Of a stretch of DNA of 19,417 nt, positions 2,939 through 16,716 are shown piece by piece; positions within the stretch are counted from its first letter, which is position 1, and each line of letters opens with the position of its first letter. The position numbers and the translations under genes were made by a program. This stretch comes from a virus, in the UHGV virus genome UHGV-1532611. One strand, given 5' to 3'. Under the pieces are notes generated by a model. The model was given only the letters and a program-made list of their open reading frames with translations. It ran no database searches and was not told the DNA's origin.

Positions 2939-4843
2939 ATGCTAAAACTTAAGCGCGATTACACAGTTCAGGGTATTGATTCTGTTGATGGTGTTTTTGA
3001 AATTGCGTTCAGTTCTGAAACTCCTGTTGAAAGACAGATTCAGGATGAATACGGTCAAAACATTACTGTTAATGAAATTCTCGTTCATGACGGCTCACAT
3101 AACGCTGACTTGACCCGAATTAATAACGGTGCTGCTTTGCTGTTTAACCATGATTTTGATAAACACTTGGGAATCGTTATTCCTGATTCTGTTCGAATCG
3201 ATGAAGACAAAATAGGACGAGCAAAAGTCCAATTCAGTCAACACGGTGAATTAGCTAAAGAAATCGGTGCAAAAGTTCAAGAAGGAACAATTAGTAAAAT
3301 CTCTTTCGGATATGACATTAATGAATATCACTTAGAAGGCGACAATCTTATTGTTACGAAATGGGCACCATATGAAATTTCTTTCGTCACTGTTCCTGCT
3401 GACGATAAAGTCGGTTTGGGAAGACTACTAAATACAGATACAACAAACAAACTTAACAAAGGTACTCGAATGAAACGTATTGATGAAATGACTAAAGATG
3501 AACTGGCAGAAATGACTATCGATGAAATTGAAATGCTGTCCGATGAAGATCGTGCAAAGCGTGAAGAAATTCTGGAAGAAGTAGTCGTTGAAAATGAAAA
3601 CGCTGGTGATTCTGCTGTTGAAAAAACTGATGACGCTCCTGCTGCTGTTCCTGCTGGTGACGAACTGACAGAAGAAGAACGCGAAGAAGAAGCGGAAGAA
3701 ATTCTTGAAATCGCACAACGCTACAAAGTAGCACAGAAAGACGTTGCAAGCGCTATCGCTAAAGGCATGACCGCACGTCAATTCAAACGCTCTATTAAAC
3801 CTAATAAATCTGCAACGGTGATTCGCAACATGACTAAAGATACTAAACAAACTCTGGAAAATAAATTCGACCTTGGCGATGCTGTTCGCTCTATGATGAA
3901 TGGTAAAGCTGTTCGCGGTGCTGCTGCTGAATATACTCAAGAAATGTCCCGTAAGCGTCTGATGCGCGGTGCTAACGTTTCTCAAGGTATCTATATGCCA
4001 GTTAGTGCTCTGCAAGGCAAACGCGCTATTAACACTGTATCAACTGTTTCCGCAGTACAAGAAACTGTTCAGCGTTATGATTCATTCGTTGAAATGCTGT
4101 TGAAAGACACTGTTGCTGATAAGCTGGGAGTTAACTTCCTGACTGGTCTGACTACTCCGATTTCTGTTCCTAAGCAGACAAAATCAAGTGTTGATGCATT
4201 CGGTTTCGTTGATGAAAACGGTGAATCTCCAGAAGGCGAAAGCAAATTCGAAAACATTCAGTTTATGCCTAAGACATTTACTGGTGGTAACCCGATTTCT
4301 CGTCAAGCTCTGTTGACTCTGCCTAATCTGGGTGCGTTCATTTCTGACCATATCGTGAATTTCTCACGCGCTAAACTGGAAGGTCTGATGTTCGGTTCTA
4401 TTACCGACGCAAAAGCTCCTCAGTCTATCGTTGCTCAGTTAGTAGCAAAACAGATGGGAATGACCTACAAAGAATTCGTTGTTGAAGCTGCTAAAGCTAA
4501 AGGCGACGGCGTAGCAATGGACAAGTTCAAATATTTGATGGCTGCTGCTCTTGAAGGTGATTTGAAAACCACTCTGCGTGACGCTGGTGTTGCTGGTTAT
4601 ATCATCGACGACCTGAACAAACTGGGCGGACATGATGTTATCGGTTCCGGTCTTGTTAAAGAAGGTCAGGTTATCTCTGGTGACTTCTCTGCTGTAACCG
4701 TAGCTGAGTGGGAAGGTCTTGCTCTTGACCTAGACGACACAACTTACCGTAACAAAGGCGCTATCGTTCCTCGCGTTTGGGCTGATATCGATTGGAAAGT
4801 TTGTGCTGATGATCGTCTGTTCCTGCACGAAAAACAAGCCTAA
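2939..4843 (+). CDS. Prohead protease - scaffold (delta-like) - major capsid protein fusion
   Basis: 634-aa continuous ORF. Residues 1-170 have the HK97-type prohead protease (S78/U35) pattern (NHDFDKHLG, ISFGYD, EISFVTVPADD). Residues about 175-290 are acidic and helical (EEEREEEAEEILE), like a scaffold or delta domain. The C-terminal ~350 aa are of major-capsid size and composition. A terminator follows the gene. Confidence 0.8.
   Translation: MLKLKRDYTVQGIDSVDGVFEIAFSSETPVERQIQDEYGQNITVNEILVHDGSHNADLTRINNGAALLFNHDFDKHLGIVIPDSVRIDEDKIGRAKVQFSQHGELAKEIGAKVQEGTISKISFGYDINEYHLEGDNLIVTKWAPYEISFVTVPADDKVGLGRLLNTDTTNKLNKGTRMKRIDEMTKDELAEMTIDEIEMLSDEDRAKREEILEEVVVENENAGDSAVEKTDDAPAAVPAGDELTEEEREEEAEEILEIAQRYKVAQKDVASAIAKGMTARQFKRSIKPNKSATVIRNMTKDTKQTLENKFDLGDAVRSMMNGKAVRGAAAEYTQEMSRKRLMRGANVSQGIYMPVSALQGKRAINTVSTVSAVQETVQRYDSFVEMLLKDTVADKLGVNFLTGLTTPISVPKQTKSSVDAFGFVDENGESPEGESKFENIQFMPKTFTGGNPISRQALLTLPNLGAFISDHIVNFSRAKLEGLMFGSITDAKAPQSIVAQLVAKQMGMTYKEFVVEAAKAKGDGVAMDKFKYLMAAALEGDLKTTLRDAGVAGYIIDDLNKLGGHDVIGSGLVKEGQVISGDFSAVTVAEWEGLALDLDDTTYRNKGAIVPRVWADIDWKVCADDRLFLHEKQA
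3427..3436 (+). promoter_or_regulatory. Internal copy of actaaataca, 33 nt upstream of the in-frame ATG at 3470
   Basis: Identical 10-mer to 2881-2890; followed by an SD-like aaaggta (3457-3463) and ATG 3470 (Met178 of the fusion ORF). Confidence 0.3.
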
Positions 4844-4874: not shown

Positions 4875-4894
4875 TGAAACTGCTGAATAATCAG

Positions 4895-4920
4895 AGGACT
4901 CCTTCGGGAGTCCTTTTTTC
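4895..4920 (+). terminator. Intrinsic terminator after the capsid gene
   Basis: 8-bp stem aggactcc / ggagtcct around a UUCG tetraloop, followed by a run of six T. Confidence 0.75.
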
Positions 4921-4929
4921 GTTTCTGGA

Positions 4930-4940
4930 CTAAATATAAT
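4930..4940 (+). promoter_or_regulatory. Promoter-like motif ctaaatataat upstream of the 4955 gene
   Basis: Immediately downstream of the capsid terminator; also contains a TATAAT hexamer. Confidence 0.3.
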
Positions 4941-4954
4941 AAAAAGGAGACAAC

Positions 4955-5251
4955 ATGATTTTTCCATATTCAGAAAAACAAAAACAGTCTTTCTTAACTC
5001 GTTTCGGACAGAAAATCAAAATTAACGATTCTGATGAACTCGGTATTGTTGAAATTGAGATTAACAACGATAACGGACAAGTAAGCGAGACAATCTATAT
5101 AACCGCTGATATCAATAAAGTTAAGCAAGAAGATGAAGTTCTATTAAACGAGATTCTGTATACCATTGCGTATCTTGTTAATGATGGTTCAGGACTTGCT
5201 AATTGTTATCTGGCATTTAAAGGCGAACAGGAGACATCATTCTATGACTAA
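4955..5251 (+). CDS. Hypothetical protein at the head-tail connector / head completion position
   Basis: 98-aa ORF with a strong SD (aaaaaggaga, 4941-4950). Lies between the capsid gene and the U-like gene. Function assigned from position only. Confidence 0.55.
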   Translation: MIFPYSEKQKQSFLTRFGQKIKINDSDELGIVEIEINNDNGQVSETIYITADINKVKQEDEVLLNEILYTIAYLVNDGSGLANCYLAFKGEQETSFYD

Positions 5252-5642
5252 TCTGCCACGTTTAGGAATTAAACGCGCTCTGGAAGAAATAATCGTTAAA
5301 GAACTTAATCTGAAATACGTCAAAAACGCTTTCACAACTGGTGTTAAAGAACCTGTTCAAGTAATGATTCCAGGAATGACAGAAGAATATACGCGAATCG
5401 GTTTGCAATCGAAACTTGCAAGTGTTCTTAGTATTACGATTGATATTTTCTCAGAGAAAAGCGAAACAGGCGTTCACAAAGCCGTTTACGACTTAATTTC
5501 TATTAAAGCTAATCATGAAAAACTTATCCCATTTAAAATCGATAAGATTTATCCAAGTTCGAGCTTCACTGATTATGATAGTGAAGCATCAAATGGTCAT
5601 GTTAGCGCACAAATAATTTTAACTTTCGAATACTTAATGTGA
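5244..5642 (+). CDS. Tail terminator protein (lambda gpU-like)
   Basis: Start chosen at ATG 5244 (SD aggaga at 5229-5234), which overlaps the stop of the upstream gene (ATGACTAA); the ORF track begins this frame at 5166. The product is 132 aa, like gpU (131 aa), and its C-terminus ILTFEYLM resembles gpU's VITYEM. Confidence 0.65.
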   Translation: MTNLPRLGIKRALEEIIVKELNLKYVKNAFTTGVKEPVQVMIPGMTEEYTRIGLQSKLASVLSITIDIFSEKSETGVHKAVYDLISIKANHEKLIPFKIDKIYPSSSFTDYDSEASNGHVSAQIILTFEYLM

Positions 5643-5649
5643 GACTAAA

Positions 5650-6675
5650 ATGACAAACGATATTTTTGTAGGAAATAACGTCAGAGTTTCAGTTAATCCG
5701 CTAATCGTTGAAATCCCAGGATATAACGACCCAGGTTATGTAAGCACTGATAAACTGGCTGCATTCCCTGTTATCGGATTTAGAAAAGAAGTTCAGACAC
5801 TAGAAGATTACAGAACCGATTTCACAACGAAACTTTCAGGTGACGTAACAATTAACGACACTTCAATAAGCTTATTTGAAGACAGTTCTGACCCAGTTTA
5901 TCAGTTGCTTGATGAAGCTCTTATGGAAAAGAAACTCCTTAGATTCAGAAGTCTTTATGTTATCGATGGAGAAACAAAGAAAGATAATGATGCTGGTCTT
6001 TATCATATTTTTAATGCTTATGTAACGAAGAAAGAAACATCAGGTTCGGCTAACTCAGTCGTTACAACAACTTTTAATCTTTCTCCTGATGGTCAGTTGT
6101 TTACAGGTTTTGCTGAATTCTCAGTTCCGTTAAACGTTGGCGATTATGGTATTGGTGCTGGTACAGAAGAAATCGCAGGCGTTAAAGACTTAGGATTATT
6201 AACTGGTAACAGATGTGTAACAGTCGATGCAACAAACAGCGATAACCCTTATAACTCTGGCACGTCTGCTATGGCTATTCAGCATCCTGATGGTCAAGGT
6301 TGGGAGCTTATTGGTTCGTCAGTCGGTAATCCAAGCATCAGAATCAGAAACAAACAACAAAGCGGTGAAACTGTTACTGAATCTCCGTGGGTCAAAGTCT
6401 ATACAGAACTTGAACGTCCAACTCCTGAAGATATTAATGCTTTGCCTATTACTGGTGGAGAACTCAAAGGATCTTTGACTATTCAGGAATATCTGAACGT
6501 TCGTAAAAAGATTTCTGCGCCACAAGGTGAAATCTTGGCTCTAAATAGTAATGAAATTAACTCAACTTCTGTCAAGGTCAAAGGCAAAGAAGTCTATTCT
6601 CCAAGTAATAAACCAACGCCATTAGAGATTAATTGTGTAGCGTTAGGAGAAACCTTAGACGCAGGAGTATTTTAA
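5650..6675 (+). CDS. Major tail (tube) protein, gpV-like N-domain plus a ~180-aa C-terminal extension
   Basis: Directly follows the U-like gene as V does in lambda. The N-terminal ~160 aa are paralogous to the 9833-10309 product (AFP..G..EV.T......KL.G......D shared). The C-terminal half is Ser/Thr/Gly-rich, consistent with an Ig-like decoration domain as in gpV. Confidence 0.65.
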   Translation: MTNDIFVGNNVRVSVNPLIVEIPGYNDPGYVSTDKLAAFPVIGFRKEVQTLEDYRTDFTTKLSGDVTINDTSISLFEDSSDPVYQLLDEALMEKKLLRFRSLYVIDGETKKDNDAGLYHIFNAYVTKKETSGSANSVVTTTFNLSPDGQLFTGFAEFSVPLNVGDYGIGAGTEEIAGVKDLGLLTGNRCVTVDATNSDNPYNSGTSAMAIQHPDGQGWELIGSSVGNPSIRIRNKQQSGETVTESPWVKVYTELERPTPEDINALPITGGELKGSLTIQEYLNVRKKISAPQGEILALNSNEINSTSVKVKGKEVYSPSNKPTPLEINCVALGETLDAGVF

Positions 6676-6687
6676 CGGATAAAGAAA

Positions 6688-9600
6688 ATGGCAAATAATA
6701 AAGTTAAACATTATAGAACAGACGTCGCCGGAAGAAAGCCAGAAGCGAAAAACATGCTTGATGGTGAAATCGCTATTAACTTAGCCGATAAAAAGATTTT
6801 TACTAAATTCGGTGACGCTGTTATTAACATCGGTAATGGTGCTGATGCTGTTGTTGAAGGCGGTCAGACCTTTACTGGAAAAATTAAAGCAAGTGATATT
6901 GAATCCGATTCTAATCTGACTTTAAAAAATCTTGATAAAAGCGATATTGTTTTTGCTGATGAACACGACAAAGCAAAAGCACGTATTAGTTCTCCTGCTC
7001 AGACAGACTCTAAAGGTGAACTTCGTGTTACGGTAGCGAAAGGAAAAGGTACAGGAGAGAGTTCTGACTTCGTGCTTAACGGTAATGGTCAGTTATCTTT
7101 GCCTGCTGCTCCTGTTGCTCCTGATAGCGCTACGCGTAAAGATTACGTTGATTCTGAAATCAGCAAAGTTCAAACAGGTTCAAGTGCTGACCTGACGAAA
7201 CTCGAACAGAAAGTTGATGCTAACGACGCTGCTATTAACACTCGCGTTGATAATCTGAATTCAAAAGTTGACCAGAACGACACGGCTATTAATACGAAAG
7301 TTGATGCGAATAAAGCTGATGCTGACGAAAAGATTAAAGCAGTTAATGACCGTTTGACTGTTGATAATCAGACTCTGAAAGACATGATTGACACCAAAGT
7401 TAATAAAGCTGGCGACACGATGACTGGCGACTTAACTGTTCCTTCTGTTCATGCTGCTGGTAATGTATACGCAGGAACTTTGAAAGTTACACCTGCTGGT
7501 AATAACGGTGATGTTCTGAGTATTGAAAACCACGGCAGAACTTCAAAGACTATTCATCAAATTGCATACGCAACGGATACGGATGATCGACTGTTATTTC
7601 GTCGTGATGCTAACGAAGGAACCGACGCATTAGATCTAATGACCATGACTTGGGGAAAAACAGGCAGAGGAATGTCAATTGATATTTCAGGTCAAGCTAG
7701 AATCACTGATGCAGTAACAACTCCTTTAATGTCCGTTGCAAGCAACTTTGCCGTTGGAAATTCACTGGGTTTAAACTCTATCGCGATTGGTGATTCCGAC
7801 ACTGGTTTTAAATGGAGAGAAGACGGATGGTTAAACTTCTATTCAAATAACGTTGTAACAGCTTCTATTGCAGGATCTGAAAACTACTTTAATAGAAAAA
7901 CTCATTTCCGTTTCAGAAGTGATGATGGTGATTCGAATCTGATGGCTCCTGAAGGTTATTCATTAATTAATATCGATACGACAACCGACGGTAATAACAT
8001 TGGTGACGCCACGACTTATTTCGGATTAGTTAATGGTGGAAAATATAATCATTATCTGAGAGGTTCAGGCAGAACTTATATTGATACTAAAGAAGGTCTT
8101 GGTGTTGCTGGCCCTGCAAGTTTCTATAAAACGATTTATAATAATAAGCCTTACGGATGGTATGACTCGGAAAGCTTACCCGACTGGAACACTCCTGAGC
8201 AACAATCAAATCATTTAAGAAAAGTTAGAGCCGTTGGTGCTGGATCCATTTATCATGAGTTGGCAATGGCTAATCATCCTGACGATAGGCTGGATAACTC
8301 TATATGTTGGTTTCATGGTGATACTCCTGAATATTGGATGGGTTCATTAAACACCAATGGTCGATTGAATCTTGCAAGTGGTGTTTCTGTCAACGGCGAA
8401 TCTAATGCTATTCAGTTGAATATTCCTGCGTCGAATCAGGCAAGTTATATGTCTGGCAATATGGACGGTCGCAATAATACCTGGATTCTTGGCAAGACAA
8501 GTGAGAATCTCGATATTGTCTGGTCTCAGAATATGAGAAATGATTTCTCTACGTCATCTGGTGTTACTCTTAGAACTAACGGATCCGTGACGGTTCAGAC
8601 TGGTACTAATACCGCGATGGATATTCAGCATAATACAATTCAAATTGATGGTGCAAGATGGGCAGCAACCAATGATCATGCTTACGCTAATCAATGGAGA
8701 CAAAATGCTCCTATGCAGATTAACTTCGGAGCAGTTGCTGGTGAAAGTGATTATTATCCCGGATATTCGATGAACTCTGTTTCCGTAGGACACGGATTCT
8801 CTACTGTTGTTGAATTAGGAACTATTAGAGGACCAGCTAATTCATGGGGCAAAGGAATTCTTCGTGTTGGGACGAAAGAAGAATCGACGTTCGGTAAAAT
8901 GGCTAATTATGAATTTGATATCGATGGTCGTTTTGCTGTTCCTGGAAAAATTAATACTCCTTCTGTTGAAACAAATCGTTTAACAAGTTTTGGTATTAAC
9001 ACGGACAACGTACTAGGTGGAAACTCAATCGCGTTTGGTGATAACGATACAGGTATTCGACAAGTTACGGACGGAAACTTAAGCATTTTTACTAATGGTA
9101 TTCAAATCGCAACCTTTAACACAGCTGGTTTGACAATTGATCGGTCAATTACGATTAACACCCATAATGAGTCTCGCGGTGTTTATGTTGGAAACGTTAG
9201 AACCGGGGCAAGCAATGCGATGATTCAAGGTGTCGTTGACGGTTGGCCGCAGTGGTCAGCGTGGCGTGATCGTCCTGCGGGAATGATTGTTGAAGCTCAG
9301 ACTCGTGATAAATGTATTAATATCTGGAAACATGTTCATTGGGGCACAGAATACGGTGCTGCGATGGACATTTATAATCCGGGTAGTTCTGCTCCCGAGG
9401 CTGCACTTCACATTGGTGGTGCAGACTATCTATTCCTCGGTAATGGAACAGCAAATGCGATCCAATGGGTTAGCACTTCTGATAAACGTCTGAAATCGAA
9501 CTTTGAAGAAATTGAAAACGCAGTTGATAAAGTCGAGAAACTTACTGGTTACGTATACGATAAGAAATCTGATTTAGTCAAAACTGAATATTCATTCGAA

Positions 9601-9771
9601 GTTCGTGAAGCAGGTATTATTGCTCAAGAACTGAAAGAAGTATTACCAGAAGCTGTTAGTTCTTTCGGACCTGACGAAATTCTTGGTGTTAACTCTGCTG
9701 CTGTAAACGCGTTGCTGGTTAATGCTATCAAGGAATTAAGTGCTCGCGTTAAAGAACTTGAAGCTAAATAA
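6688..9771 (+). CDS. Tail fiber protein with C-terminal S74-type intramolecular chaperone (auto-cleaving) domain
   Basis: 1027 aa. Contains the KAGDTMTGDLTV phage-fiber repeat motif, a helical repeat region (DANDAAINTRVDNLNSKVDQNDTAINTKVD), two copies of an LG.NSIA.GD.DTG motif, and the C-terminal SDKRLKS...GIIAQEL...AIKEL domain that closely resembles the T5 pb1 / K1F endosialidase chaperone domain. Confidence 0.88.
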   Translation: MANNKVKHYRTDVAGRKPEAKNMLDGEIAINLADKKIFTKFGDAVINIGNGADAVVEGGQTFTGKIKASDIESDSNLTLKNLDKSDIVFADEHDKAKARISSPAQTDSKGELRVTVAKGKGTGESSDFVLNGNGQLSLPAAPVAPDSATRKDYVDSEISKVQTGSSADLTKLEQKVDANDAAINTRVDNLNSKVDQNDTAINTKVDANKADADEKIKAVNDRLTVDNQTLKDMIDTKVNKAGDTMTGDLTVPSVHAAGNVYAGTLKVTPAGNNGDVLSIENHGRTSKTIHQIAYATDTDDRLLFRRDANEGTDALDLMTMTWGKTGRGMSIDISGQARITDAVTTPLMSVASNFAVGNSLGLNSIAIGDSDTGFKWREDGWLNFYSNNVVTASIAGSENYFNRKTHFRFRSDDGDSNLMAPEGYSLINIDTTTDGNNIGDATTYFGLVNGGKYNHYLRGSGRTYIDTKEGLGVAGPASFYKTIYNNKPYGWYDSESLPDWNTPEQQSNHLRKVRAVGAGSIYHELAMANHPDDRLDNSICWFHGDTPEYWMGSLNTNGRLNLASGVSVNGESNAIQLNIPASNQASYMSGNMDGRNNTWILGKTSENLDIVWSQNMRNDFSTSSGVTLRTNGSVTVQTGTNTAMDIQHNTIQIDGARWAATNDHAYANQWRQNAPMQINFGAVAGESDYYPGYSMNSVSVGHGFSTVVELGTIRGPANSWGKGILRVGTKEESTFGKMANYEFDIDGRFAVPGKINTPSVETNRLTSFGINTDNVLGGNSIAFGDNDTGIRQVTDGNLSIFTNGIQIATFNTAGLTIDRSITINTHNESRGVYVGNVRTGASNAMIQGVVDGWPQWSAWRDRPAGMIVEAQTRDKCINIWKHVHWGTEYGAAMDIYNPGSSAPEAALHIGGADYLFLGNGTANAIQWVSTSDKRLKSNFEEIENAVDKVEKLTGYVYDKKSDLVKTEYSFEVREAGIIAQELKEVLPEAVSSFGPDEILGVNSAAVNALLVNAIKELSARVKELEAK
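9478..9768 (+). other. Region of the tail fiber gene encoding the S74 intramolecular chaperone domain (aa 931-1027)
   Basis: The SDKRLK motif begins at codon 9478-9480, followed by the conserved GxxAQELKEVLPE and AIKEL...ELEAK segments; released by autocleavage in known homologs. Confidence 0.75.
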
Positions 9772-9774
9772 CAA

Positions 9775-9794
9775 AAAGGGGAGAAATCCCCTTT
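9775..9794 (+). terminator. Hairpin / weak terminator after the tail fiber gene
   Basis: aaagggga-gaaa-tccccttt: GC stem with a GNRA loop; the U-tract is short (three T, part of the stem). Confidence 0.5.
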
Positions 9795-9795
9795 G

Positions 9796-9805
9796 CTAAA
9801 TAAAC
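9796..9805 (+). promoter_or_regulatory. Promoter-like motif ctaaataaac upstream of the 9833 gene
   Basis: Directly after the 9775-9794 hairpin. A near copy (ctaaataac, 9764-9772) overlaps the fiber stop codon. Confidence 0.3.
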
Positions 9806-9832
9806 TATATTAACTCAAATAGGAAATTAAAA

Positions 9833-10309
9833 ATGGCAGACAAATTTGATATTTTTGCTGGCTCTTACGTCAGTGTGTTCTATAACTCAGAAATTGCAAA
9901 CACCGATCTGAATTCAGAAAAGTTTGTTGAAATTCCTGAAACTGGTGCATTCCCTTCTACGGGTATTGAACGCGAAGTTATTACAGCTCCTAACTTCTCT
10001 CACAAATACTCCCGTAAACTGGTTGGTCGTGGCTCTGTTCCTGATATCGACTTGACCGTTAACTATATTCCAGAAAGCGTTCATGATGTTCTGATTAAGC
10101 TTGCGGAAGATGGTAAACGTGGTCAGTTTAAAATCGTTTATTGGATTGATGCTACTAAAAAACTGGGTGTTGCAAAAGTTTATAACGGCTTCTTGTCAAG
10201 CGCTGTTCATAATGGCGGTGAATCAGAAGTTCAAGGTCTGACAATGACACTGAGTGTTGATGGTGGTCCTGTTGTTTCTGGTGTTGTTGATTTGACATCA
10301 AGTGATTAA
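9833..10309 (+). CDS. Tail-tube-fold protein: second gpV-like paralog, or a distal tail (M/Dit-like) ring protein
   Basis: 158 aa. Aligns by eye with the N-domain of the 5650-6675 product, and its C-terminal pattern (KIVYWID...VYNGFLSSAV) resembles the gpV N-domain as remembered. Preceded by a terminator and promoter-like motif, followed by a terminator. Confidence 0.6.
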   Translation: MADKFDIFAGSYVSVFYNSEIANTDLNSEKFVEIPETGAFPSTGIEREVITAPNFSHKYSRKLVGRGSVPDIDLTVNYIPESVHDVLIKLAEDGKRGQFKIVYWIDATKKLGVAKVYNGFLSSAVHNGGESEVQGLTMTLSVDGGPVVSGVVDLTSSD

Positions 10310-10313
10310 TTAA

Positions 10314-10337
10314 AAAGACTCCGCAAGGGGTCTTTTT
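10314..10337 (+). terminator. Intrinsic terminator after the second tail-tube paralog
   Basis: agactcc-gcaa-ggggtct (7-bp stem with one G-U pair, GNRA loop) followed by seven T. Confidence 0.7.
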
Positions 10338-10341
10338 TTGG

Positions 10342-10351
10342 CTCTAAATAA
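10342..10351 (+). promoter_or_regulatory. Promoter-like motif ctaaataaag upstream of the 10367 gene
   Basis: Exact 10-mer shared with 14477-14486 and 15967-15976; sits just after the 10314-10337 terminator. Confidence 0.35.
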
Positions 10352-10366
10352 AGTCAGAGGTGAAAC

Positions 10367-10783
10367 ATGTTTAAATTTCAAGCTGACTTATCAAAATTAC
10401 TTAACCGCTATATCAATCAGCAACACGTTTTCGGTCAAAACGACTGTAATATCCTTGTTGCTGAATATATCGACCTTGTTTGTGCTACTGAATACACAGA
10501 CAAATTAAAAGACAAATACACGAGTATTCCTGAAGGTCTCAAGATTTGCAAAGAGCTAACTGGTTTTAATAACGTTCTCGAAGCGTGTGAAACGCATCTT
10601 GAGAAATCAGAAACTATAGAAACAGGCTCGGTTATCTTAATTAAGAAAAAACATAAAAACCGTGTCTATTACGTTGCATCTATCGTTTTTAATAATAGAG
10701 CATTAGTTGAACATGAAAATAAATATCAACTGATAAACGTCAACGATTTTAATTTTGAATTAATTTTTAACAGGAGAAAATAA
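10367..10783 (+). CDS. NlpC/P60-like tail tip protein (gpK C-terminal domain homolog, no MPN/JAB domain)
   Basis: 138 aa. HVFGQNDCNILVAEY matches the Cys motif of the gpK NlpC/P60 domain (HGVTDCYTLF) and GSVILIKKKHKNRVYYVASIVFNNRALVEH matches GDVLL...NHAAIY.GDGELLHH. Stop overlaps the start of the J-like gene (TAATG). Confidence 0.5.
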   Translation: MFKFQADLSKLLNRYINQQHVFGQNDCNILVAEYIDLVCATEYTDKLKDKYTSIPEGLKICKELTGFNNVLEACETHLEKSETIETGSVILIKKKHKNRVYYVASIVFNNRALVEHENKYQLINVNDFNFELIFNRRK

Positions 10784-13700
10784 TGGCTATTGTAGCTATT
10801 GGTGCAATTATCGCAGGTGCTTCCGCGGCTGCTGCTGCTTACGCTGCGGGTGCTGCTCTTGCTTTGGCAATTGGTATTGGTGTCGCTGTTGCTGCTGTTT
10901 CTGCTTTGATGTCAACTCAGATGGCGCAGAACGTTCCCCGATTTAACAGCACAGACACAGCAACGACATTAGGAACAACGTCAGATCCATCAAGTGTTAT
11001 TCCTATTATCTATGGTGAACAGCGTACAGGTACGATTAACGTTTGGAAAGCTGTTGGCGTTGATACGACATATTTGGTTCAGATCTTTGCAATCTGTGAA
11101 GGTGAAGTTGATAGCTTCAAAAACCTTTATATGGATAATCAGAAAATCTTACTTGATGGCGTTTATAAAGACGGTGTTCTTCCGAAAGGTTCAATCGCTG
11201 CTGAATATCAGCAATATGTTGAAGTTGAATTCTCAACTGGTAAGCCATACGGTCACGTTTTTACTCTTGCTCAGAAATATCTAGGAAATTCAGATGCTGG
11301 CTGGCCTGATTCTGCTACTGGTAATAACATCGCTGCTTGTTGTGTTGTTATGCGCAAACGTAACTCAGACCTTCAAAACCAAGCTGATATCCTGCAACCT
11401 AACAGTCAAGTATCTGTTGACGTTAGAGGACGTTTGATTACAGATCTGAACACAGGAGAACGCGTTTCCTCGAACAACGGTCCGAGTCAGATTGTTGATT
11501 ATCTAACAAATGATAGATACGGTCTTGGAATTCAGATTGATAAAATCGACCTTGATAGTTTTAAAGAAGCTGCTCGATATGCAAAACTGAACAGTTTATT
11601 TTCTGATGGTGCAACTGACCCGAACGGTTCATTCAAAGAAAACTTAACTCAGCTTGCAGGTGCATTTAACGGTATTATCACAGAGACTTTCGGTAAAGTA
11701 ACATGCAGAATCGATGGACCTGATGTTGTTCAATATGACTTCAACGAAGATAATATTAACGCTGGTACTGTTAGCTTAAACGATGGCGGTTCTGAGAATT
11801 ATTACAATACTCTGAACGTGAAATATCAAGATCCGTCGATTGACTATTCTGACCAAGTTCTGCGTTATCCGTCTGACGTAACAAATGATGGAACAATCGC
11901 GAAAGATAAACGTATTATCGCTAAAGATATCAGTTACAGATTCGTGAAATCAAAATCTCAGTTGGATAAAATTGCTTCAATCGAACGTAACAAATCTCTG
12001 TTAAAGCAAGTTATTAGTTTTTCAACTGCTGATGCTTATACCGCACAGGTCTGGGATGTTATCAGAGTTAATTTCTCTGAACTGGAACTTGTGAATTCAT
12101 TATGGCGTATTACTAATATCGATCGTTCGATGAATAAAGGTGCTGCTGGTATCGTTACTATTACTGCTTCTGAATATATCGAAGAAGTTTATACCAATCT
12201 TGACTACGCGAAAGACCCTGATAACACAGGAAGCAACATTCCTAATAAATCTGTTCTGATTGCTCCTAAGAATCTGACAGTTAAAGCAGTTGCTGAAACA
12301 GCTTTAGGAAGAACTCTGAAAGTTCAATGGACGTCTGAACCTGATTATAATCGCGCAGGTTATTATATTCAGTATAGTCTTGCTGGTAAGAACTCTTGGA
12401 TTCAAGCAGGTTTCACATCAGGCGATTATTTCTTGATTATGAGTCTTGACCCTAATCAGAAATTTGATATTCGTGTTTGTGCTTCTGGTGTTGTGTATCG
12501 TTCAGATTGGGTTTATGTCAATAACGTTAACCCTGAGGTTATGTATAACTTACCAGTCGTTACAGGACTGCACCTAGTGAACGCAGTTGAAAATCAATAC
12601 ACCACTAACAAGACTCAATTTGAATTCGCCTGGGACGACCAGAGCGCACAGAAATTCTATGTTGACGACACGTTACAGACATTCGGTGAAGTTTTTCAAT
12701 ATTACGAAATCAAAATTGAAGGTCAGCGTCCTGTAATTTACAAGACTAAAGACTTAGGTTTTGTATATGACTTTAATATGAACTTGGGTAATGGTCTGAG
12801 TCGTGAATTGAAAGTTTCTGTTACTGCATACGGTCACGCTGGTATGAAGTCAGATCCTGCTGTTATTACTGTTAAGAACAATCAAGCTCCTGCTATTCAA
12901 GGTTTCACAGCTTCGAATGGTCCTGGAATGCTGATGTGCTCTTGGAATGACCCACGCGATAATAAGCCTGAAGTTCCTGACTTCAAAGGCACAATCGTTC
13001 ATATTGCGAAAGACCAGAGTTTTAATGAAATTGTTCACGTTTATTCAAGTTCAAGTCCGTTCTTAGATAATTTTCCATTAGAAGATGGTCAATTCTATGT
13101 TCGTTCAGCTTGGTATGACGTATTCGGACAAGACCAGATTACTTGGTCAGAATCGAAGTTTATCGATATGAAATGGGATATTCCGTGGACTGACGATATG
13201 AAAGAACAGTTAAACGATTTGCTTGATTTGGATAAACGTGTTGATGGTGCTATCGATGAAGCATTAGACCTCGCTAACAAATACACTGATACGAAAGTTA
13301 CAGCATCCGAGCAAAAAGTTACTACTGAATTAAATCAGACTATCACGACGAAAAACACCGAACTTCATACTCAGATTACTAATGAAACTAATGGCGCTAT
13401 CAATCAGGCTATCAGTATTCAAGAATCTAACTTTGATGGAAAACTTAACTCGGCTATTACGAAAGTTGAAAAAACTCAAGCTGATGATAGACAAGCAACC
13501 GCAAGTTCAATTAATCAATTGAAAGCTGAAACAAACACAGCTATTGCAACAGTTAGTCAAGAATCAAAAGCAAGCGTTGACGACTTAACAGGAACGATTA
13601 ATAGCAAATGGGCAGTTCAGACTAATGCCGACGGTGTTGTTGCTGGTATCAGTATGCTGGCTAATAAGAATCCTGACGGTTCAAAACAGTCTAGTATTGT

Positions 13701-14472
13701 TTTTAACGCTGATAAAATCGCTATAACGAATAACAATACTCCTGCGGGTGCTGTTGCTCCGTTTATGGTCGCTGATAACAGAGTTTATATGGATTCTGCA
13801 ATGATTCGTAATGCTTCTATCGGTTCAGCACAGATTGCAGATGCTTCTATTAACAACGCTAAGATTCAAAACGGTGCTATTAACAACGCGAAGATTGAAA
13901 ACGGTGCGATTACTACTGCGAAAATTGGTAATGCTCAGATCGGTTCAGCACAGATTGCTTATGAAATATCTTCTGATAACTGGTTCCCTTCCGGTGGTAC
14001 TCAAGGTTGGACAATCAGAAAAGACGGTTGGGCTTCTTTCCAAAACGTTAATATCAGAGGTAACATTCAAGCAGATTCTGGTTATTTCGCAGGTGAAATC
14101 AGAGGCGGTTCAGGTTATTTCACAGGAACTGTATACGCTGACAGAATTGAAGGTGACGTTATCAAAATGGGTCATATAGATCCGTGGACAACAGTTCATA
14201 TTCCTGCTGTTAACTGGAACAGAGTAATTTCTATTCCAAACCTTTCGATTTCAGGCAGAACTTATTCCGGTGGTGCTTGGGGCTACGGAACTGCATGGAT
14301 TAATATGTCGAACGGTCAAGAAATCGTAAGAACAGTTACCAGTGCAATGAGTGGTTCAAACGGTGGTACAGGCATTATCTATGCGGGACAAGCTGTTGAT
14401 TTGAGTTACGGTGCTGACTTGAATCATGCGACCGCAGCAAGAGCAGTTTACTTTATCAGTAAACAACAATAA
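10783..14472 (+). CDS. Tail tip / host specificity protein (gpJ-like) with gpI-like N-terminal segment
   Basis: 1229 aa. The N-terminal Gly/Ala-rich hydrophobic stretch followed by VIPIIYGEQRTGTINV resembles the gpI C-terminus (VLPVLYGEMRVGSRVV). IVDYLTNDRYGLG matches the gpJ LTHPRYGMG region. Two FN3-like segments, a helical region and NAKIxNGAI-type repeats are present, and WAVQTNADGVVAGISM...FNADKIAI resembles gpJ [20 protein letters not shown]...VAANRIAF. The C-terminal ~170 aa are the likely receptor-binding domain. Confidence 0.85.
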   Translation: MAIVAIGAIIAGASAAAAAYAAGAALALAIGIGVAVAAVSALMSTQMAQNVPRFNSTDTATTLGTTSDPSSVIPIIYGEQRTGTINVWKAVGVDTTYLVQIFAICEGEVDSFKNLYMDNQKILLDGVYKDGVLPKGSIAAEYQQYVEVEFSTGKPYGHVFTLAQKYLGNSDAGWPDSATGNNIAACCVVMRKRNSDLQNQADILQPNSQVSVDVRGRLITDLNTGERVSSNNGPSQIVDYLTNDRYGLGIQIDKIDLDSFKEAARYAKLNSLFSDGATDPNGSFKENLTQLAGAFNGIITETFGKVTCRIDGPDVVQYDFNEDNINAGTVSLNDGGSENYYNTLNVKYQDPSIDYSDQVLRYPSDVTNDGTIAKDKRIIAKDISYRFVKSKSQLDKIASIERNKSLLKQVISFSTADAYTAQVWDVIRVNFSELELVNSLWRITNIDRSMNKGAAGIVTITASEYIEEVYTNLDYAKDPDNTGSNIPNKSVLIAPKNLTVKAVAETALGRTLKVQWTSEPDYNRAGYYIQYSLAGKNSWIQAGFTSGDYFLIMSLDPNQKFDIRVCASGVVYRSDWVYVNNVNPEVMYNLPVVTGLHLVNAVENQYTTNKTQFEFAWDDQSAQKFYVDDTLQTFGEVFQYYEIKIEGQRPVIYKTKDLGFVYDFNMNLGNGLSRELKVSVTAYGHAGMKSDPAVITVKNNQAPAIQGFTASNGPGMLMCSWNDPRDNKPEVPDFKGTIVHIAKDQSFNEIVHVYSSSSPFLDNFPLEDGQFYVRSAWYDVFGQDQITWSESKFIDMKWDIPWTDDMKEQLNDLLDLDKRVDGAIDEALDLANKYTDTKVTASEQKVTTELNQTITTKNTELHTQITNETNGAINQAISIQESNFDGKLNSAITKVEKTQADDRQATASSINQLKAETNTAIATVSQESKASVDDLTGTINSKWAVQTNADGVVAGISMLANKNPDGSKQSSIVFNADKIAITNNNTPAGAVAPFMVADNRVYMDSAMIRNASIGSAQIADASINNAKIQNGAINNAKIENGAITTAKIGNAQIGSAQIAYEISSDNWFPSGGTQGWTIRKDGWASFQNVNIRGNIQADSGYFAGEIRGGSGYFTGTVYADRIEGDVIKMGHIDPWTTVHIPAVNWNRVISIPNLSISGRTYSGGAWGYGTAWINMSNGQEIVRTVTSAMSGSNGGTGIIYAGQAVDLSYGADLNHATAARAVYFISKQQ

Positions 14473-14476
14473 CGTT

Positions 14477-14486
14477 CTAAATAAAG
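14477..14486 (+). promoter_or_regulatory. Promoter-like motif ctaaataaag upstream of the 14518 gene
   Basis: Exact 10-mer, 4 nt after the J-like stop and 31 nt before ATG 14518. Confidence 0.35.
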
Positions 14487-14517
14487 ACAAGGAGGTCTTT
14501 TAAAAAGGAGATTCAAG

Positions 14518-14802
14518 ATGGTCGATATAGCACTGATCATTTCCATCTTGGGTGCTCTAGGAGGTTTCTTGGCTTGGGTTTATGCCGAAATTAAATCAAA
14601 CAATGAAAAACGAATTGACCTTGAGAAACGTTTCTCAGACATCGAAAAAAGCATAGCCGTTAATGACGCAAAAGATGCTTCGCTTATAAGCGATATAACA
14701 CGACAACAGGATGAATTTCGAGAGGTCAAATCTGATTTGAAGAATTTAGAAGGAAGAACAGCAAAGCTAGATATCGACCTAGCAGTTCTAAGAGGAAAAT
14801 GA
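14518..14802 (+). CDS. Small membrane-anchored coiled-coil protein (one N-terminal TM helix); function unknown
   Basis: 94 aa with two SD-like elements upstream (aaggagg 14489-14495, aaggag 14505-14510). IALIISILGALGGFLAWVYA is a predicted TM helix, followed by a charged helical region. Stop overlaps the next start (ATGA). No cysteine, so not a lipoprotein. Confidence 0.6.
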   Translation: MVDIALIISILGALGGFLAWVYAEIKSNNEKRIDLEKRFSDIEKSIAVNDAKDASLISDITRQQDEFREVKSDLKNLEGRTAKLDIDLAVLRGK

Positions 14803-15275
14803 AAAGAAAAGAGATTCCGATTTATAAGCAAGAACTCTTTCAAAAGCAAAAAGGTCTTTGTGCTTTAACTGGCATAAAGATTCATGAAGTTAATAAAGCC
14901 CATCTTGACCATGACCATATATTAACAGGCTCTAACGCAGGCAGATGCAGAGGATTATTAATCGCTCAAGCAAACGTCCTAGAGGGCAGAATAAAACATC
15001 AGTTTAAACGTTCGGGTCTCGATGGGAAAATTGACTACATCGAGTTTTTGAAGAATCTTGTTCAGTATCTTGAAAAAGACTACTCAGACAATCCTACGCA
15101 TCCACAACTTATTCCTGATTTAAAGAAGGCGTTCTCTCGAAAAAATCTTTCTGAGATGAAAGCTATTACAGGTTCAAACCTTAAAACGAAAAAGGAGCTT
15201 GAAAAAGTCTACTCAAACCAAATAAAGGTGAAATATGAAAATGAAATATCTCCAAGCATTGGCAAAACACGCTAA
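14799..15275 (+). CDS. T4 endonuclease VII (gp49)-like junction-resolving / HNH-fold nuclease
   Basis: 158 aa (T4 endo VII is 157 aa). HLDHDH, GRCRGLL, N..EG and KHQFKRSGL.G..DYIEFL.NL..YL..DYS.N..HP are collinear with T4 endo VII as remembered. The catalytic Asp/His/His/Asn/Glu equivalents are present. Confidence 0.8.
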   Translation: MKRKEIPIYKQELFQKQKGLCALTGIKIHEVNKAHLDHDHILTGSNAGRCRGLLIAQANVLEGRIKHQFKRSGLDGKIDYIEFLKNLVQYLEKDYSDNPTHPQLIPDLKKAFSRKNLSEMKAITGSNLKTKKELEKVYSNQIKVKYENEISPSIGKTR

Positions 15276-15432
15276 AGATTATCTTATTGTTCTATTTCTC
15301 GTTACTATAACTTATAACACTGTTGCTGTTCCTGTTCTGCAAGCTTTCGATATTAAAGCACCTAAAATGATTCTTATCAGCGAAGAACAGATAAAAACAT
15401 TTGGGACGCTTCTGATGTCAGGAGTGAACTAA
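15235..15432 (+). CDS. Small single-pass membrane protein, hypothetical
   Basis: 65 aa with SD aaggtga (15222-15228) before ATG 15235. Predicted TM helix YLIVLFLVTITYNTVAVPVL. Overlaps the 3' end of the endo VII-like gene by 41 nt in another frame, and its stop overlaps the next start (TAATG), so the call is tentative. Confidence 0.4.
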   Translation: MKMKYLQALAKHAKDYLIVLFLVTITYNTVAVPVLQAFDIKAPKMILISEEQIKTFGTLLMSGVN

Positions 15433-15974
15433 TGGCAAAAGCAAAAGATGTTATGAAAGACCTTGAAAAATGGCGAATCAAAGAATCTGACGTGTTCAGT
15501 AAGAAAGTAACCAAAGCGTCTAAACTCGCTTCTGTTGAGTTGCAAAGAAAAATCAACAGACGAGTCGATGGACCAGTTAATTTCACTAAGAACGCAGTAG
15601 GTTTCAGTTTCAGATACGATCAGAACGGGTCACGAAATAGAATATTCATCAAAGACAAGCAGGCTGATTATCTTGCTCCGTTAATTGATGATAACAAAGG
15701 AATTAACAAGTTTGTTCCAACTGGTGTAAGAGGTTCAAAGAACAAATTCGGTAACATTCCTAACTTGAAATCAAGAAATAATCTTGAAGCTGTCAAGCAA
15801 AAAAAAGATGGCGTAACTCGAACGATCCTCATTAAAACTAACGTTAAAAAGCAAGACCGTCGTTTAATTGCTGTATTCAAGAAAAATCAACACAGAAGAA
15901 AAACTCTGGGTTCATGGAATCAAATCTCTGACGATATATTCAAAACCGTTAAGCGTGTTGCGGGTACTAAATAA
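15432..15974 (+). CDS. Lys/Arg-rich basic protein, hypothetical
   Basis: 180 aa, strongly basic, no cysteine. SD ggagtga (15421-15427). No recognisable family by eye. Confidence 0.6.
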   Translation: MAKAKDVMKDLEKWRIKESDVFSKKVTKASKLASVELQRKINRRVDGPVNFTKNAVGFSFRYDQNGSRNRIFIKDKQADYLAPLIDDNKGINKFVPTGVRGSKNKFGNIPNLKSRNNLEAVKQKKDGVTRTILIKTNVKKQDRRLIAVFKKNQHRRKTLGSWNQISDDIFKTVKRVAGTK

Positions 15975-15976
15975 AG
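15967..15976 (+). promoter_or_regulatory. Promoter-like motif ctaaataaag upstream of the 15992 gene
   Basis: Exact 10-mer overlapping the stop codon of the 180-aa gene, 15 nt before ATG 15992. Confidence 0.35.
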
Positions 15977-15991
15977 TCAAAAGGAGAACAA

Positions 15992-16309
15992 ATGAACATT
16001 CACGATTTTGATACTTACAGATTAGACGAACTTGCCGACATCTACGTTAACGAGATTAATCCCGAGTCAATGACTGTTCCTTACGGTTGCGAACACATCA
16101 AAGATAAGCGAATTAAAAAATATCTGTTCAACGATAAGAACGTTTTTATTGTTTCAACACAGAAGAAAAAACCTAATTGTCATTTCAAATTAGGACAGAC
16201 AGTTCGACTGCAAGGTCCATTTTTTGAGACCGAAGCGAAGAACTTAGGAATGATTGAATATATCCACAAAGGTTTCAGAATGTACGGATATTTCTTTCAA
16301 TGGAAATAA
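15992..16309 (+). CDS. Hypothetical small protein (moron-like unit)
   Basis: 105 aa with a strong SD (aaaaggaga, 15977-15985). A promoter-like motif lies upstream (15967-15976) and a terminator hairpin immediately downstream (16311-16336). Contains two Cys and several His. Confidence 0.65.
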   Translation: MNIHDFDTYRLDELADIYVNEINPESMTVPYGCEHIKDKRIKKYLFNDKNVFIVSTQKKKPNCHFKLGQTVRLQGPFFETEAKNLGMIEYIHKGFRMYGYFFQWK

Positions 16310-16310
16310 C

Positions 16311-16336
16311 AAAAGGGAGCCTCGCGCTCCCTTTTT
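16311..16336 (+). terminator. Intrinsic terminator after the 105-aa gene
   Basis: gggagc-ctcgc-gctccc stem-loop flanked by aaaa upstream and ttttt downstream. Confidence 0.7.
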
Positions 16337-16348
16337 CATAAATAAAAG
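16337..16348 (+). promoter_or_regulatory. Promoter-like motif cataaataaaag upstream of the G-like chaperone gene
   Basis: Directly after the 16311-16336 terminator, 24 nt before ATG 16373. Confidence 0.3.
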
Positions 16349-16372
16349 AAAACTCAACAAAGGGAAACAAAA

Positions 16373-16681
16373 ATGAATTTCGATGAAATGTTAGCAAGTC
16401 TTTCGCCTTCTCGCGAACCAGTAGAAATCAACGGCTTTAAATTCTATGCTCGTCCTATGACCGTATCTGAATTCGGTGAATTCTATTTCAAAAATGAAAA
16501 CACAGAAGAACGTAACGACCGAATGATTCTGAATTGTATTCAACACGAAGACGGAACTCCTGTTTTTAAAGAAATCGCTCAAGTTCAGAAACTTTATACC
16601 ACTGTTCGTTCAACTCTTGCTAGTGCTGTTTCTACTGCCAGTATTCTCAGTAAGAAATCAGACGTTCTGGAAAAGAACTAA
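16373..16681 (+). CDS. Tail assembly chaperone (gpG-like)
   Basis: 102 aa immediately upstream of the tape measure gene. EINGFKFYARPMTVSEF resembles gpG FEHNGVTVTLSELSALQ. Its 3' end overlaps an open -1 frame (the T-like frame). Confidence 0.6.
   Translation: MNFDEMLASLSPSREPVEINGFKFYARPMTVSEFGEFYFKNENTEERNDRMILNCIQHEDGTPVFKEIAQVQKLYTTVRSTLASAVSTASILSKKSDVLEKN
16669..16675 (+). other. Candidate -1 ribosomal frameshift site (G GAA AAG) for a G-T fusion
   Basis: GGAAAAG lies in the G-frame 2 codons before the G stop, inside the G/T overlap. It differs by one base from the lambda G-T slippery site G GGA AAG; the A-site AAG to AAA slip is canonical. Confidence 0.35.
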
Positions 16682-16716
16682 GACAGAACTGGGCTAAATC
16701 ATTTCAGTATAGAACA

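Follow-up and report, generated by a model that had tools for sequence, protein, structure and literature searches.

The DNA examined in this work, referred to here as the window, is a stretch of 19,417 nucleotides (nt) from the virus genome UHGV-1532611, and it carries the structural module of an Enterobacterales prophage of the lambda-like siphovirus type. In its 5' part, a C-terminal piece of a gpA-type large terminase is followed by the genes for a gpW-like protein, a lambda-type portal, a fused prohead protease/major capsid protein and two proteins of 98 and 132 amino acids (aa). The middle part comprises the genes for a 341-aa protein (5650-6675; referred to here as LONG), a tail fibre of 1027 aa (6688-9771), a 158-aa protein (9833-10309; referred to here as SHORT), a DUF6950 protein and a 1229-aa J-like tip protein, and the 3' part carries the genes for a 94-aa protein, an endonuclease VII, proteins of 65, 180 and 105 aa, G- and T-like chaperones and the start of the tape measure protein. 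This work concerns the relationship between LONG and SHORT, which flank the fibre gene as an earlier reading of the DNA letters (the original prediction) had stated, and the manner in which the fibre may be fastened to the tail of this virus.

In the original prediction, the N-terminal approximately 160 aa of LONG were aligned by eye with the whole of SHORT, and the two proteins were considered to be paralogs sharing the tail-tube fold. Formal comparisons bear out both this resemblance and its extent. In a BLASTP alignment, residues 4-148 of LONG matched residues 6-144 of SHORT with 40 identities in 145 positions (28%; E=1e-10), and the comparison by hhalign of their family alignments (20 sequences for LONG and 24 for SHORT) gave a probability of 99.3% with E=2.5e-20 over 159 columns. 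Both proteins also match the PHROG family phrog_158, annotated as "major tail protein" (5.3e-16 for SHORT and 1e-5 for LONG), and a DIFxG motif near the N-terminus as well as an AFP motif are common to the LONG N-domain and SHORT. Further, a pair consisting of a LONG-type protein and its SHORT paralog was detected in every relative examined, with E values from 1e-7 to 1e-14. Judged from these sequence comparisons, the N-terminal part of LONG and SHORT are true homologs, with a similarity far beyond that due to chance.

Information regarding the fold of these proteins comes from an AlphaFold2 (AF2) model of LONG, which is confident only for residues 10-155; the core of this N-domain has pLDDT (predicted local distance difference test) values of approximately 76-91, with low-confidence loops at residues 46-65 and 108-111. 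In Foldseek searches against the PDB, the N-domain matches the lambda tube protein gpV (8k36_A, E=1.2e-6), and also the tube proteins of 80alpha, NF5 and SPP1, and Hcp. Ring-forming tube proteins account for all of the structural neighbours at E<=1e-4 (ranks 1-17), and the later matches are mostly tube or Hcp proteins; the search against BFVD returned generic tube proteins only. The idea of two paralogs with a tail-tube fold is thus upheld by the match of the LONG N-domain model to gpV and by the paralogy found by BLASTP and hhalign, and SHORT itself would possess this fold by virtue of its homology to the LONG N-domain.

Of the two proteins, it was the longer one, located directly after a U-like gene, that the original prediction preferred as the true tube protein, a natural reading which is not borne out by our results. 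The evidence points instead to SHORT (9833..10309, plus strand), which is lambda gpV-like but without the immunoglobulin-like (Ig) domain, as the major tail tube protein. Among the 24 members of the SHORT family, the lambda-like tube families PF16460, PF16461 and PF08813 are matched by 10, 9 and 4 members, respectively, whereas none of the 20 members of the LONG family match any of the tube families in Pfam. Further, in those relatives which show the canonical gene order, viz. tail terminator, LONG and fibre, SHORT, G, T, tape measure, distal tail protein (Dit), a protein of approximately 215 aa, DUF6950 and J, it is SHORT and not LONG which is directly upstream of the chaperones and the tape measure gene. 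These relatives include the loci L006, L007, L012, L013, L030-L051, L053 and L054, Escherichia phage DCP80 and many IMG/VR contigs. SHORT is also better conserved, its identity to the window protein in three matched relatives being 64, 52 and 57% in comparison to 44, 35 and 36% for LONG. In addition, LONG has a C-terminal part of fibre type and a variable length, and a fibre gene always follows it. The identification of SHORT as the tube protein is based on the profile matches of its homologs, the gene order and its conservation, together with a terminator and a promoter-like motif which are described below.

The position of SHORT as a tube gene was hidden from the original prediction because the tail module has been rearranged in the lineage to which the window belongs. 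In this lineage (9833-19417 in the window), the order of the genes is tube, DUF6950, J, 94 aa, endonuclease VII, 65 aa, 180 aa, 105 aa, G, T and tape measure. In the prophage of E. coli PSS-15 (locus L005, 3911-5124 and 33901-36279), the tape measure gene is the final gene before the host gene ldtB, and the genes for Dit and a 217-aa tip protein are on the opposite strand, by a serine recombinase at the other end of the prophage.

The DNA surrounding SHORT also contains signals that are informative regarding its expression. A motif of the form CTAAATAWA is present at 5 sites in the window, as compared to 0.68 expected, and five sites were reached in 0 of 200 shuffles. All of these sites (beginning at 4930, 9796, 10344, 14477 and 15967) are on the plus strand and intergenic, often just past a hairpin. 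The site at 4930..4938 (CTAAATATA) is a candidate late promoter for the unit consisting of the genes for the 98-aa protein, the tail terminator protein, LONG and the fibre; the site at 9796..9804 (CTAAATAAA), which is 29 nt upstream of the start of SHORT, is a similar candidate for this gene; and that at 10344..10352 (again CTAAATAAA) starts the next unit, which encodes DUF6950 and the J-like tip protein. The remaining two sites span 14477-14485 and 15967-15975, and a shorter form, TAAATAWA, is found at 815-822 and 16339-16346. The CTAAATAWA motif resembles the late promoter of T4, which is TATAAATA, and in DCP80, TATAAATA is present at the same junction upstream of SHORT. The motif is kept at the same junctions in relatives, and a TAAATA element is found upstream of SHORT in most of 42 loci as compared to upstream of LONG in 1 of 41. 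CTAAATAWA is a candidate phage-specific late promoter.

Strong terminators in this region are present only after the capsid gene and after SHORT. The former, at 4893..4916 (plus strand), is an intrinsic terminator consisting of a 10-bp GC-rich hairpin with a T-run that ends the preceding high-copy unit after the fused protease/capsid gene (2939-4843). The latter, at 10314..10339 (plus strand), follows SHORT directly and consists of the hairpin AAAGACTCC-GCAA-GGGGTCTTT with a run of seven T residues; a hairpin and T-run of differing sequence is present directly after SHORT in at least 31 of 42 related loci. The original prediction had placed terminators on both sides of SHORT, and of these the downstream one is clear. 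However, the upstream hairpin, which follows the fibre gene (GGGGA-GAAA-TCCCC, 9775..9794, plus strand), has a weak T-tail (TTTGCT) and was scored as a terminator on the minus strand only. Similarly, the promoter-like motif that was predicted before SHORT corresponds to the recurring CTAAATAAA, but a scan for the sigma-70 consensus gave fewer promoter-like sites than in shuffled sequences and nothing significant in the spacer between the fibre gene and SHORT, and the motif is better explained as a CTAAATAWA site. In the stretch of the window containing the genes for the tail terminator, LONG and the fibre, no promoter motif or terminator was found between the genes. SHORT, with the motif before it and the conserved terminator after it, is thus a separately punctuated expression unit, as the original prediction had surmised. 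It would likely constitute a monocistronic unit of high output, and LONG would be co-transcribed with low-copy neck proteins and the fibre; it is only the promoter motif and the terminator which suggest that SHORT is abundant in the tail.

Variation in the tube gene is seen in some relatives. In the loci L037-L042, L044, L014 and L031, the tube gene is not followed by a terminator and a Pro/Glu-rich coding sequence can be read in the DNA beyond it, and in L032 and L049-L051 the open reading frame (ORF) for the tube protein is 251-267 aa long. These variants could represent a C-terminal extension made via frameshift or read-through, or a fused decoration domain.

In contrast to SHORT, LONG is a fibre protein, consisting of a tube-like domain, a conserved middle part, a variable shaft and a conserved tip, all encoded on the plus strand. 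Residues 1-150 (5650..6099) make up the tail-tube-fold domain that is paralogous to the tube protein. Residues 155-270 (6112..6459), in which most of the invariant columns of the alignment are found (GDYGxGAGT...GNRW...QHP..GW.LIG...IRIRNK...W.KVYTE.EKPT), are the most conserved part of the family. Residues 271-341 (6460..6675) correspond to a short fibre shaft and a conserved C-terminal tip (...VYSPSNKPTPLEINCVALGETLDAGVF), as indicated by the variation in the lengths of the family members and by the tip motif. The whole proteins of the LONG family range from 277 to 699 aa, with the shaft being variable, and the tip, of the form NKPTP..I.AV....(I/L)D(F/A/L)G.(F/Y/L), is present in every copy of LONG. 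That the extreme C-terminus is conserved although the fibre varies in length argues for its docking to a conserved partner rather than for receptor binding. Residues 219-335 match tail-fibre PHROGs, including gp36- and gp37-type families, and the matches at residues 219-285 overlap the conserved middle domain. The T4 gp36 family PF03903 matches the C-terminal part of 2 of the 20 LONG homologs (E=3.8e-22); the window LONG has no Pfam match to PF03903 and shows only a faint match to phrog_1425 (E=0.0076). The Pfam searches gave no match for the LONG, SHORT, 132-, 98-, 180- and 105-aa proteins of the window, the NCBIfam searches gave none for any of nine proteins, and nothing meaningful was found when the alignments for LONG, SHORT and the 132-aa protein were used as profiles to search the sequences of the PDB.

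The gene following LONG encodes a gp37-like distal fibre of 1027 aa (6688..9771, plus strand; phrog_1699, 1.4e-114, and the gp37-like phrog_5667). It starts 12 nt past the stop codon of LONG, with no terminator or motif in between. Its residues 1-100 (6688-6987, plus strand) form a conserved N-terminal domain, the first 50-100 aa of which show 50% identity in relatives, and its residues 931-990 (9478-9657, plus strand) are a Peptidase_S74 intramolecular chaperone (PF13884, 2.1e-14). The N-terminus carries the motif (K/R)R(T/S)..G..P....L..GE.A.N..D..(I/L)(Y/F)TK, and this domain retains approximately 50% identity where relatives have distal fibre parts that are unrelated. Of the 46 loci surveyed, all those of the LONG type (approximately 40 loci with two-piece fibres) showed the order tail terminator, LONG, fibre with the conserved N-terminus, and SHORT. 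In some relatives, viz. L054 (8154-8924) and L010 (13460-13744), genes for T4 gp38-like adhesin/chaperone proteins (PF05268, PF21721) are located between the distal fibre and the tube gene; the fibre cassette is thus modular and swaps parts with T-even-type fibres.

In three other loci, the place between the tail terminator and tube genes is occupied by a single gene encoding a one-piece protein with a tube-like N-domain, a fibre body and an S74 chaperone. These proteins are 1233 aa long in L012 (E. coli GCA_019839345), 1136 aa in the metagenomic L013 and 927 aa in L053, and the N-domain of the L053 protein shows 28% identity (E=6e-14) to the tube protein of the same locus. An exhaustive profile search retrieved 509 cluster representatives at E<=1e-3, and among the best 150 of these, the tube-like domain is located at the very N-terminus in 94, which are 206-1438 aa long, with 72 of the 94 exceeding 700 aa. 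The architecture with a tube-like N-domain is thus present in at least 94 protein clusters (at 50% identity), which are from Enterobacterales prophages where the source is named. The named examples, from Pantoea, Serratia, Rahnella, Citrobacter and E. coli, are labelled as "tail fiber (domain-containing) protein" or "hypothetical". The one-piece proteins show that what the slot between the two genes codes for is a fibre with a tube-like anchor. The tube proteins, the LONG-type N-domains and the N-domains of one-piece fibres form three clusters that are mutually only approximately 25% identical, which indicates that the duplication of the tube protein is old. No match was found in a BLAST search of the fibre N-terminus against all of the cluster representatives, and the one-piece fibres contain neither the LONG-tip motif nor the fibre N-terminus motif. 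Due to this, the slot should be regarded as functionally equivalent in the two types of loci, and a simple fission of one gene into two is not supported as the origin of the two-piece fibre; the N-domains of the one- and two-piece proteins also form separate clades.

Two other known tube-fold tail proteins are encoded separately in these viruses. The 132-aa protein upstream of LONG (5244..5642, plus strand) is a gpU-like tail terminator protein. It has no sequence-profile match, but its AF2 model (pLDDT 82.4) has as its top Foldseek matches lambda gpU (8iyd_K, 2.7e-7, and 3fzb), the NF5 neck protein and T5 p142. The existence of a U-like gene before LONG, which was assumed in the original prediction, is thus corroborated by the resemblance of the model to the lambda gpU and T5 p142 terminators, and the gene has the gpU-type placement between the putative head-tail joining gene and LONG. 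The start of this gene is likely the ATG at 5244 rather than the TTG at 5166, because its homologs are 132 aa long. In relatives, Dit has a gene of its own after the tape measure, the product being 184-199 aa long and weakly matching PF21430 (the B-domain of T5 pb9), and the E. coli prophage of the window lineage contains a homolog of it with 56% identity. An identification of LONG as Dit was rejected, as a separate Dit gene exists and the LONG gene is upstream of the tube gene, and its identification as the tail terminator was also rejected in view of the separate gpU-fold protein. LONG is consequently an additional tube-fold component, since the tail terminator and Dit are both encoded elsewhere. 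The inference in the original prediction that one member of the pair is a specialised, non-bulk protein with the tube fold thus holds true, and the fallback of a distal-tail ring protein with the same fold was close in spirit, but LONG is not Dit, which has its own gene.

Based upon these results, we consider it probable that, with SHORT as the tube protein, LONG serves as the proximal subunit in a side tail fibre of two pieces, which is anchored via a ring of tube-protein paralogs. In such an arrangement, the N-terminal 150 residues of LONG, as an old duplicate of the tube protein, would assemble as a ring or part-ring in the axial stack of the tube and would thereby fix the fibre covalently to the tail. 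Domains with the tube fold are found in the axial stack of known tails, as seen for the tube itself, the Dit belt, the terminator, T4 gp48/gp54 and T5 p140, and it is from this and from the ring-forming nature of its structural neighbours that a ring of LONG N-domains in the tube is surmised. The conserved middle domain and the short shaft would point outward, with the fibre part leaving the outer surface where the C-termini of tube proteins emerge, an example of which is the Ig domain of gpV. The C-terminal tip of LONG would then dock onto the conserved N-terminal domain of the 1027-aa gp37-like fibre, which would supply the receptor-binding end and the self-cleaving S74 chaperone. The location of SHORT in its own unit between a late-promoter-like motif and a terminator would fit a protein needed at approximately 200 copies, and LONG would be transcribed together with the low-copy neck proteins and the fibre. 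A hexamer of LONG would provide two trimeric fibres. The ring would more likely be located at the distal junction between the tube and Dit, as is T5 p140, with the neck end as the alternative. The length of the tail follows a rule of 0.15 nm per tape-measure residue, by which the tape measure of approximately 790 aa in the related prophage corresponds to a tail of approximately 120 nm; a neck-anchored fibre of approximately 1,200 residues would probably lack the reach to the tip of such a tail, and for an adhesin fibre the distal junction is functionally more plausible. The most specific part of this proposal, that the tube-duplicate N-domain forms a dedicated ring within the polymerised tube, making the fibre a part of the tube lattice rather than a structure clipped on by a collar, would represent a previously undescribed mounting, and it is put forward tentatively, as something which may well prove correct but which we do not presume. 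For the anchoring of side fibres via a tube paralog, the architecture has good computational support, but the mechanism is unproven.

A number of observations weigh against this proposal. The window SHORT itself has no Pfam match at E<=0.01, and in the window it is followed by DUF6950 and J rather than by the chaperones. For LONG, the part beyond residue 155 has AF2 pLDDT values of 32-69, so that the middle domain and tip are without a fold assignment, and the motifs of the postulated joint are, as noted earlier, those that the one-piece fibres lack. The sole ground for placing the N-domain of LONG within the tube is the rule regarding the axial stack, and a hexameric ring carrying trimeric fibres entails a 6:3 mismatch. 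Further, the location of the LONG gene between the tail terminator and tube genes could equally suggest a site near the neck.

Other interpretations of LONG should also be considered. Its tube-like domain could be located outside the axial stack, as an oligomerisation or adaptor module on the exterior of the tail, on Dit or on the tip, in the manner of the lambda Stf or T5 p132 collars. The known anchors of side fibres are indeed external collars (the 12-mer of lambda Stf, PMC12617516, and T5 p132, PMC11313276), and with the three clades being only about 25% identical the surfaces involved in tube stacking may have diverged. However, the closest structural neighbours of the LONG N-domain are without exception ring-forming tube proteins, the DIFxG and AFP motifs are common to LONG and the real tube protein, and the lumen of a tube-fold ring is too narrow to encircle a tube; hence we regard an external adaptor as unlikely. 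Quite improbable, in our view, is the possibility that LONG is a minor tube subunit, polymerised together with SHORT over the whole length of the tail, which it would decorate with short fibres, as in the case of SPP1 gp17.1* or other tube proteins with C-terminal decoration domains, with the 1027-aa fibre being attached elsewhere, e.g. at the tip. It is true that the LONG N-domain retains the full tube fold, including the loop region that aligns with that of SHORT, that outward C-terminal domains on tube proteins are well established (viz. the Ig domain of lambda gpV), and that extended tube proteins of 251-267 aa exist in some relatives. However, LONG shares a unit with low-copy neck proteins and does not have the upstream promoter motif of SHORT, its conserved extreme C-terminus and the constant presence next to it of a fibre whose N-terminus is conserved point to a specific joint, and the one-piece versions would place receptor-binding fibres of 900-1400 aa all along the tail.

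The interpretation made in the original prediction, in which LONG is the true major tube protein and SHORT a specialised ring protein or a second tube subunit, must be considered very improbable. The location of LONG directly after the tail terminator gene is the usual place of a tube gene, and SHORT in the window is not succeeded by chaperones. However, the Pfam tube families are matched by the SHORT family only, it is SHORT which precedes G, T and the tape measure in the relatives with the canonical order, and this protein is both better conserved and provided with the signals of a high-expression unit. In addition, fibre proteins of 900-1200 aa take the place of LONG in relatives.

Among known systems, the closest analogue of LONG is p140 of phage T5, a protein with a double tube-domain fold. 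The gene of this tube paralog, annotated as "base plate tail tube protein" (T5.144), adjoins that of the tube protein in the T5 gene order. LONG is likewise a paralog of its cognate tube protein and the two genes are adjacent save for the intervening fibre gene; the likeness is drawn from paralogy, gene position and the proposed role in fibre attachment, and not from sequence. The Dit of the LONG-bearing phages also weakly matches the B-domain of T5 pb9. In the tip complex of T5, p140 forms a ring, and the outer loops of this ring touch both the pb1 fibre and the p132 collar; p140 is present there as a trimer, and the fibre is held via the separate 12-mer collar of p132 (PMC11313276). In contrast, LONG has a single tube domain that is fused to the fibre polypeptide, whereas p140 is a separate protein, so that by its architecture LONG does not belong to the p140 family, and no collar gene was recognised in the window by Pfam and PHROG annotation. 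SHORT belongs with lambda gpV on the basis of the profile matches of its homologs, the gene order in relatives and its expression signals, despite lacking the C-terminal Ig-like domain; LONG has the same fold in its N-domain, but it fails the tube sequence profiles and lacks the gene order of a tube protein, and it carries a fibre in place of the decoration domain. The Stf of Ur-lambda is, like the fibre described here, a gp37-like side fibre of a lambda-like siphovirus; it is attached near the junction of tube and Dit by its own N-terminal region, with the N-termini forming a 12-mer collar at the gpV/gpM junction (PMC12617516). However, that collar is external and carries four trimers and stf comes after J, whereas LONG has the tube fold and its gene is between those for the tail terminator and the tube. 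The proposed arrangement of two polypeptides end to end, the distal one being gp37-like (phrog_1699, phrog_5667), is shared with T4 gp36-gp37 and with LtfA/LtfB of DT57C, and the likeness to gp36 extends to the PF03903 matches of two LONG homologs (for the window LONG, only to the faint phrog_1425 match); the T4 fibres, however, join the baseplate via gp34 and not via a tube-fold domain. The LONG family would thus combine the lambda idea of an anchor within the fibre polypeptide with the T5 idea of an anchor made from a tube paralog.

A literature search on tube-domain-fused fibres and on DCP80 found nothing relevant, and no paper or curated family for this architecture was encountered. The N-domain and middle domain of LONG are not covered by any Pfam or NCBIfam model, and PHROGs lumps LONG together with SHORT under phrog_158. 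The rate at which a phage adsorbs and the range of its hosts are determined by its side fibres, and the fastening of such fibres to non-contractile tails is known for few models, viz. the lambda Stf collar and the T5 p132/p140 collar. If the interpretation proposed here is correct, a fibre anchor derived from a tube paralog would represent a third solution to this problem, in which the level and number of the fibres are fixed by the assembly of the tube itself, and it would characterise an entire family of lambda-like Enterobacterales prophages with one- or two-piece fibres (at least 94 clusters). It would also account for many proteins that are annotated as "hypothetical" or "tail fiber domain-containing" in the prophages of E. 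coli, Klebsiella, Enterobacter, Citrobacter, Serratia and Pantoea, and would correct the likely mis-annotation of such fibre proteins as "major tail protein", which phrog_158 invites by covering both. Further, the conserved anchor module, consisting of approximately the first 270 residues and the joint between the tip and the fibre N-terminus, could be used for fibre swaps in engineered phages. If LONG is only an ordinary decorated tube subunit, the value of these results will be limited to better annotation. The results overturn nothing; what they point to is a widespread but unannotated design for fibre attachment.

With regard to the distribution of this module, the region of LONG is 100% identical to the IMG/VR contig UViG_3300045988_134013, a protein from Citrobacter freundii is 99% identical to LONG, and the related prophage of E. 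coli PSS-15 (L005; NZ_AP027709, 3.347-3.381 Mb), which is approximately 34 kb, is inserted between ybiT and ldtB. In species-representative genomes, the LONG family alignment retrieved only 3 loci. DCP80 was the sole carrier of the module among 50,697 deposited phage genomes in protein searches, and a DNA search with positions 5000-10800 of the window against these 50,697 records gave no match. The DCP80 record (L001, PQ671644.1; 141 kb) is classed in Straboviridae/Gaprivervirus and contains T4-like genes, e.g. motA, yet it carries a lambda-like siphovirus structural module at 1.7-24.5 kb; this record may represent a mosaic phage of an unusual kind, or it may have been mislabelled or assembled as a chimera. 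The ORFs for Dit and DUF6950 are unannotated in it, corresponding to the gaps at 16877-17462 and 18124-18679.

Some other genes of the window also deserve mention. The 98-aa protein (4955..5251, plus strand) is tentatively a gpFII-like head-tail joining protein, as the protein in the same slot of L012 shows a weak match to PF05354 (Phage_attach). This L012 protein gave no BLAST match to the 98-aa protein, for which no direct family match was found in Pfam, PHROG and NCBIfam searches; the same-slot proteins of L006 and L008 are 37% and 29% identical to it, respectively. In the 634-aa ORF at 2939-4843, a Peptidase_S78 prohead protease is fused with an HK97-type major capsid protein (phrog_617, 1e-78), and this fusion is kept in nearly all relatives, with separate genes seen in one copy from Atlantibacter (L008). 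The endonuclease VII gene at 14799-15275 (phrog_423, 4e-36) is located inside the tail cluster, and in several relatives it is found upstream of the terminase. The homologs of the 180-aa and 105-aa proteins, which are encoded in the same cluster, are limited to the rearranged lineage and DCP80, with none in the relatives showing the canonical order. Lastly, the DUF6950 protein (10367-10783; PF22262, 1.6e-10) is encoded in all relatives immediately upstream of the J-like tip gene, which it abuts, and this suggests a conserved role for it in the assembly or structure of the tail tip.

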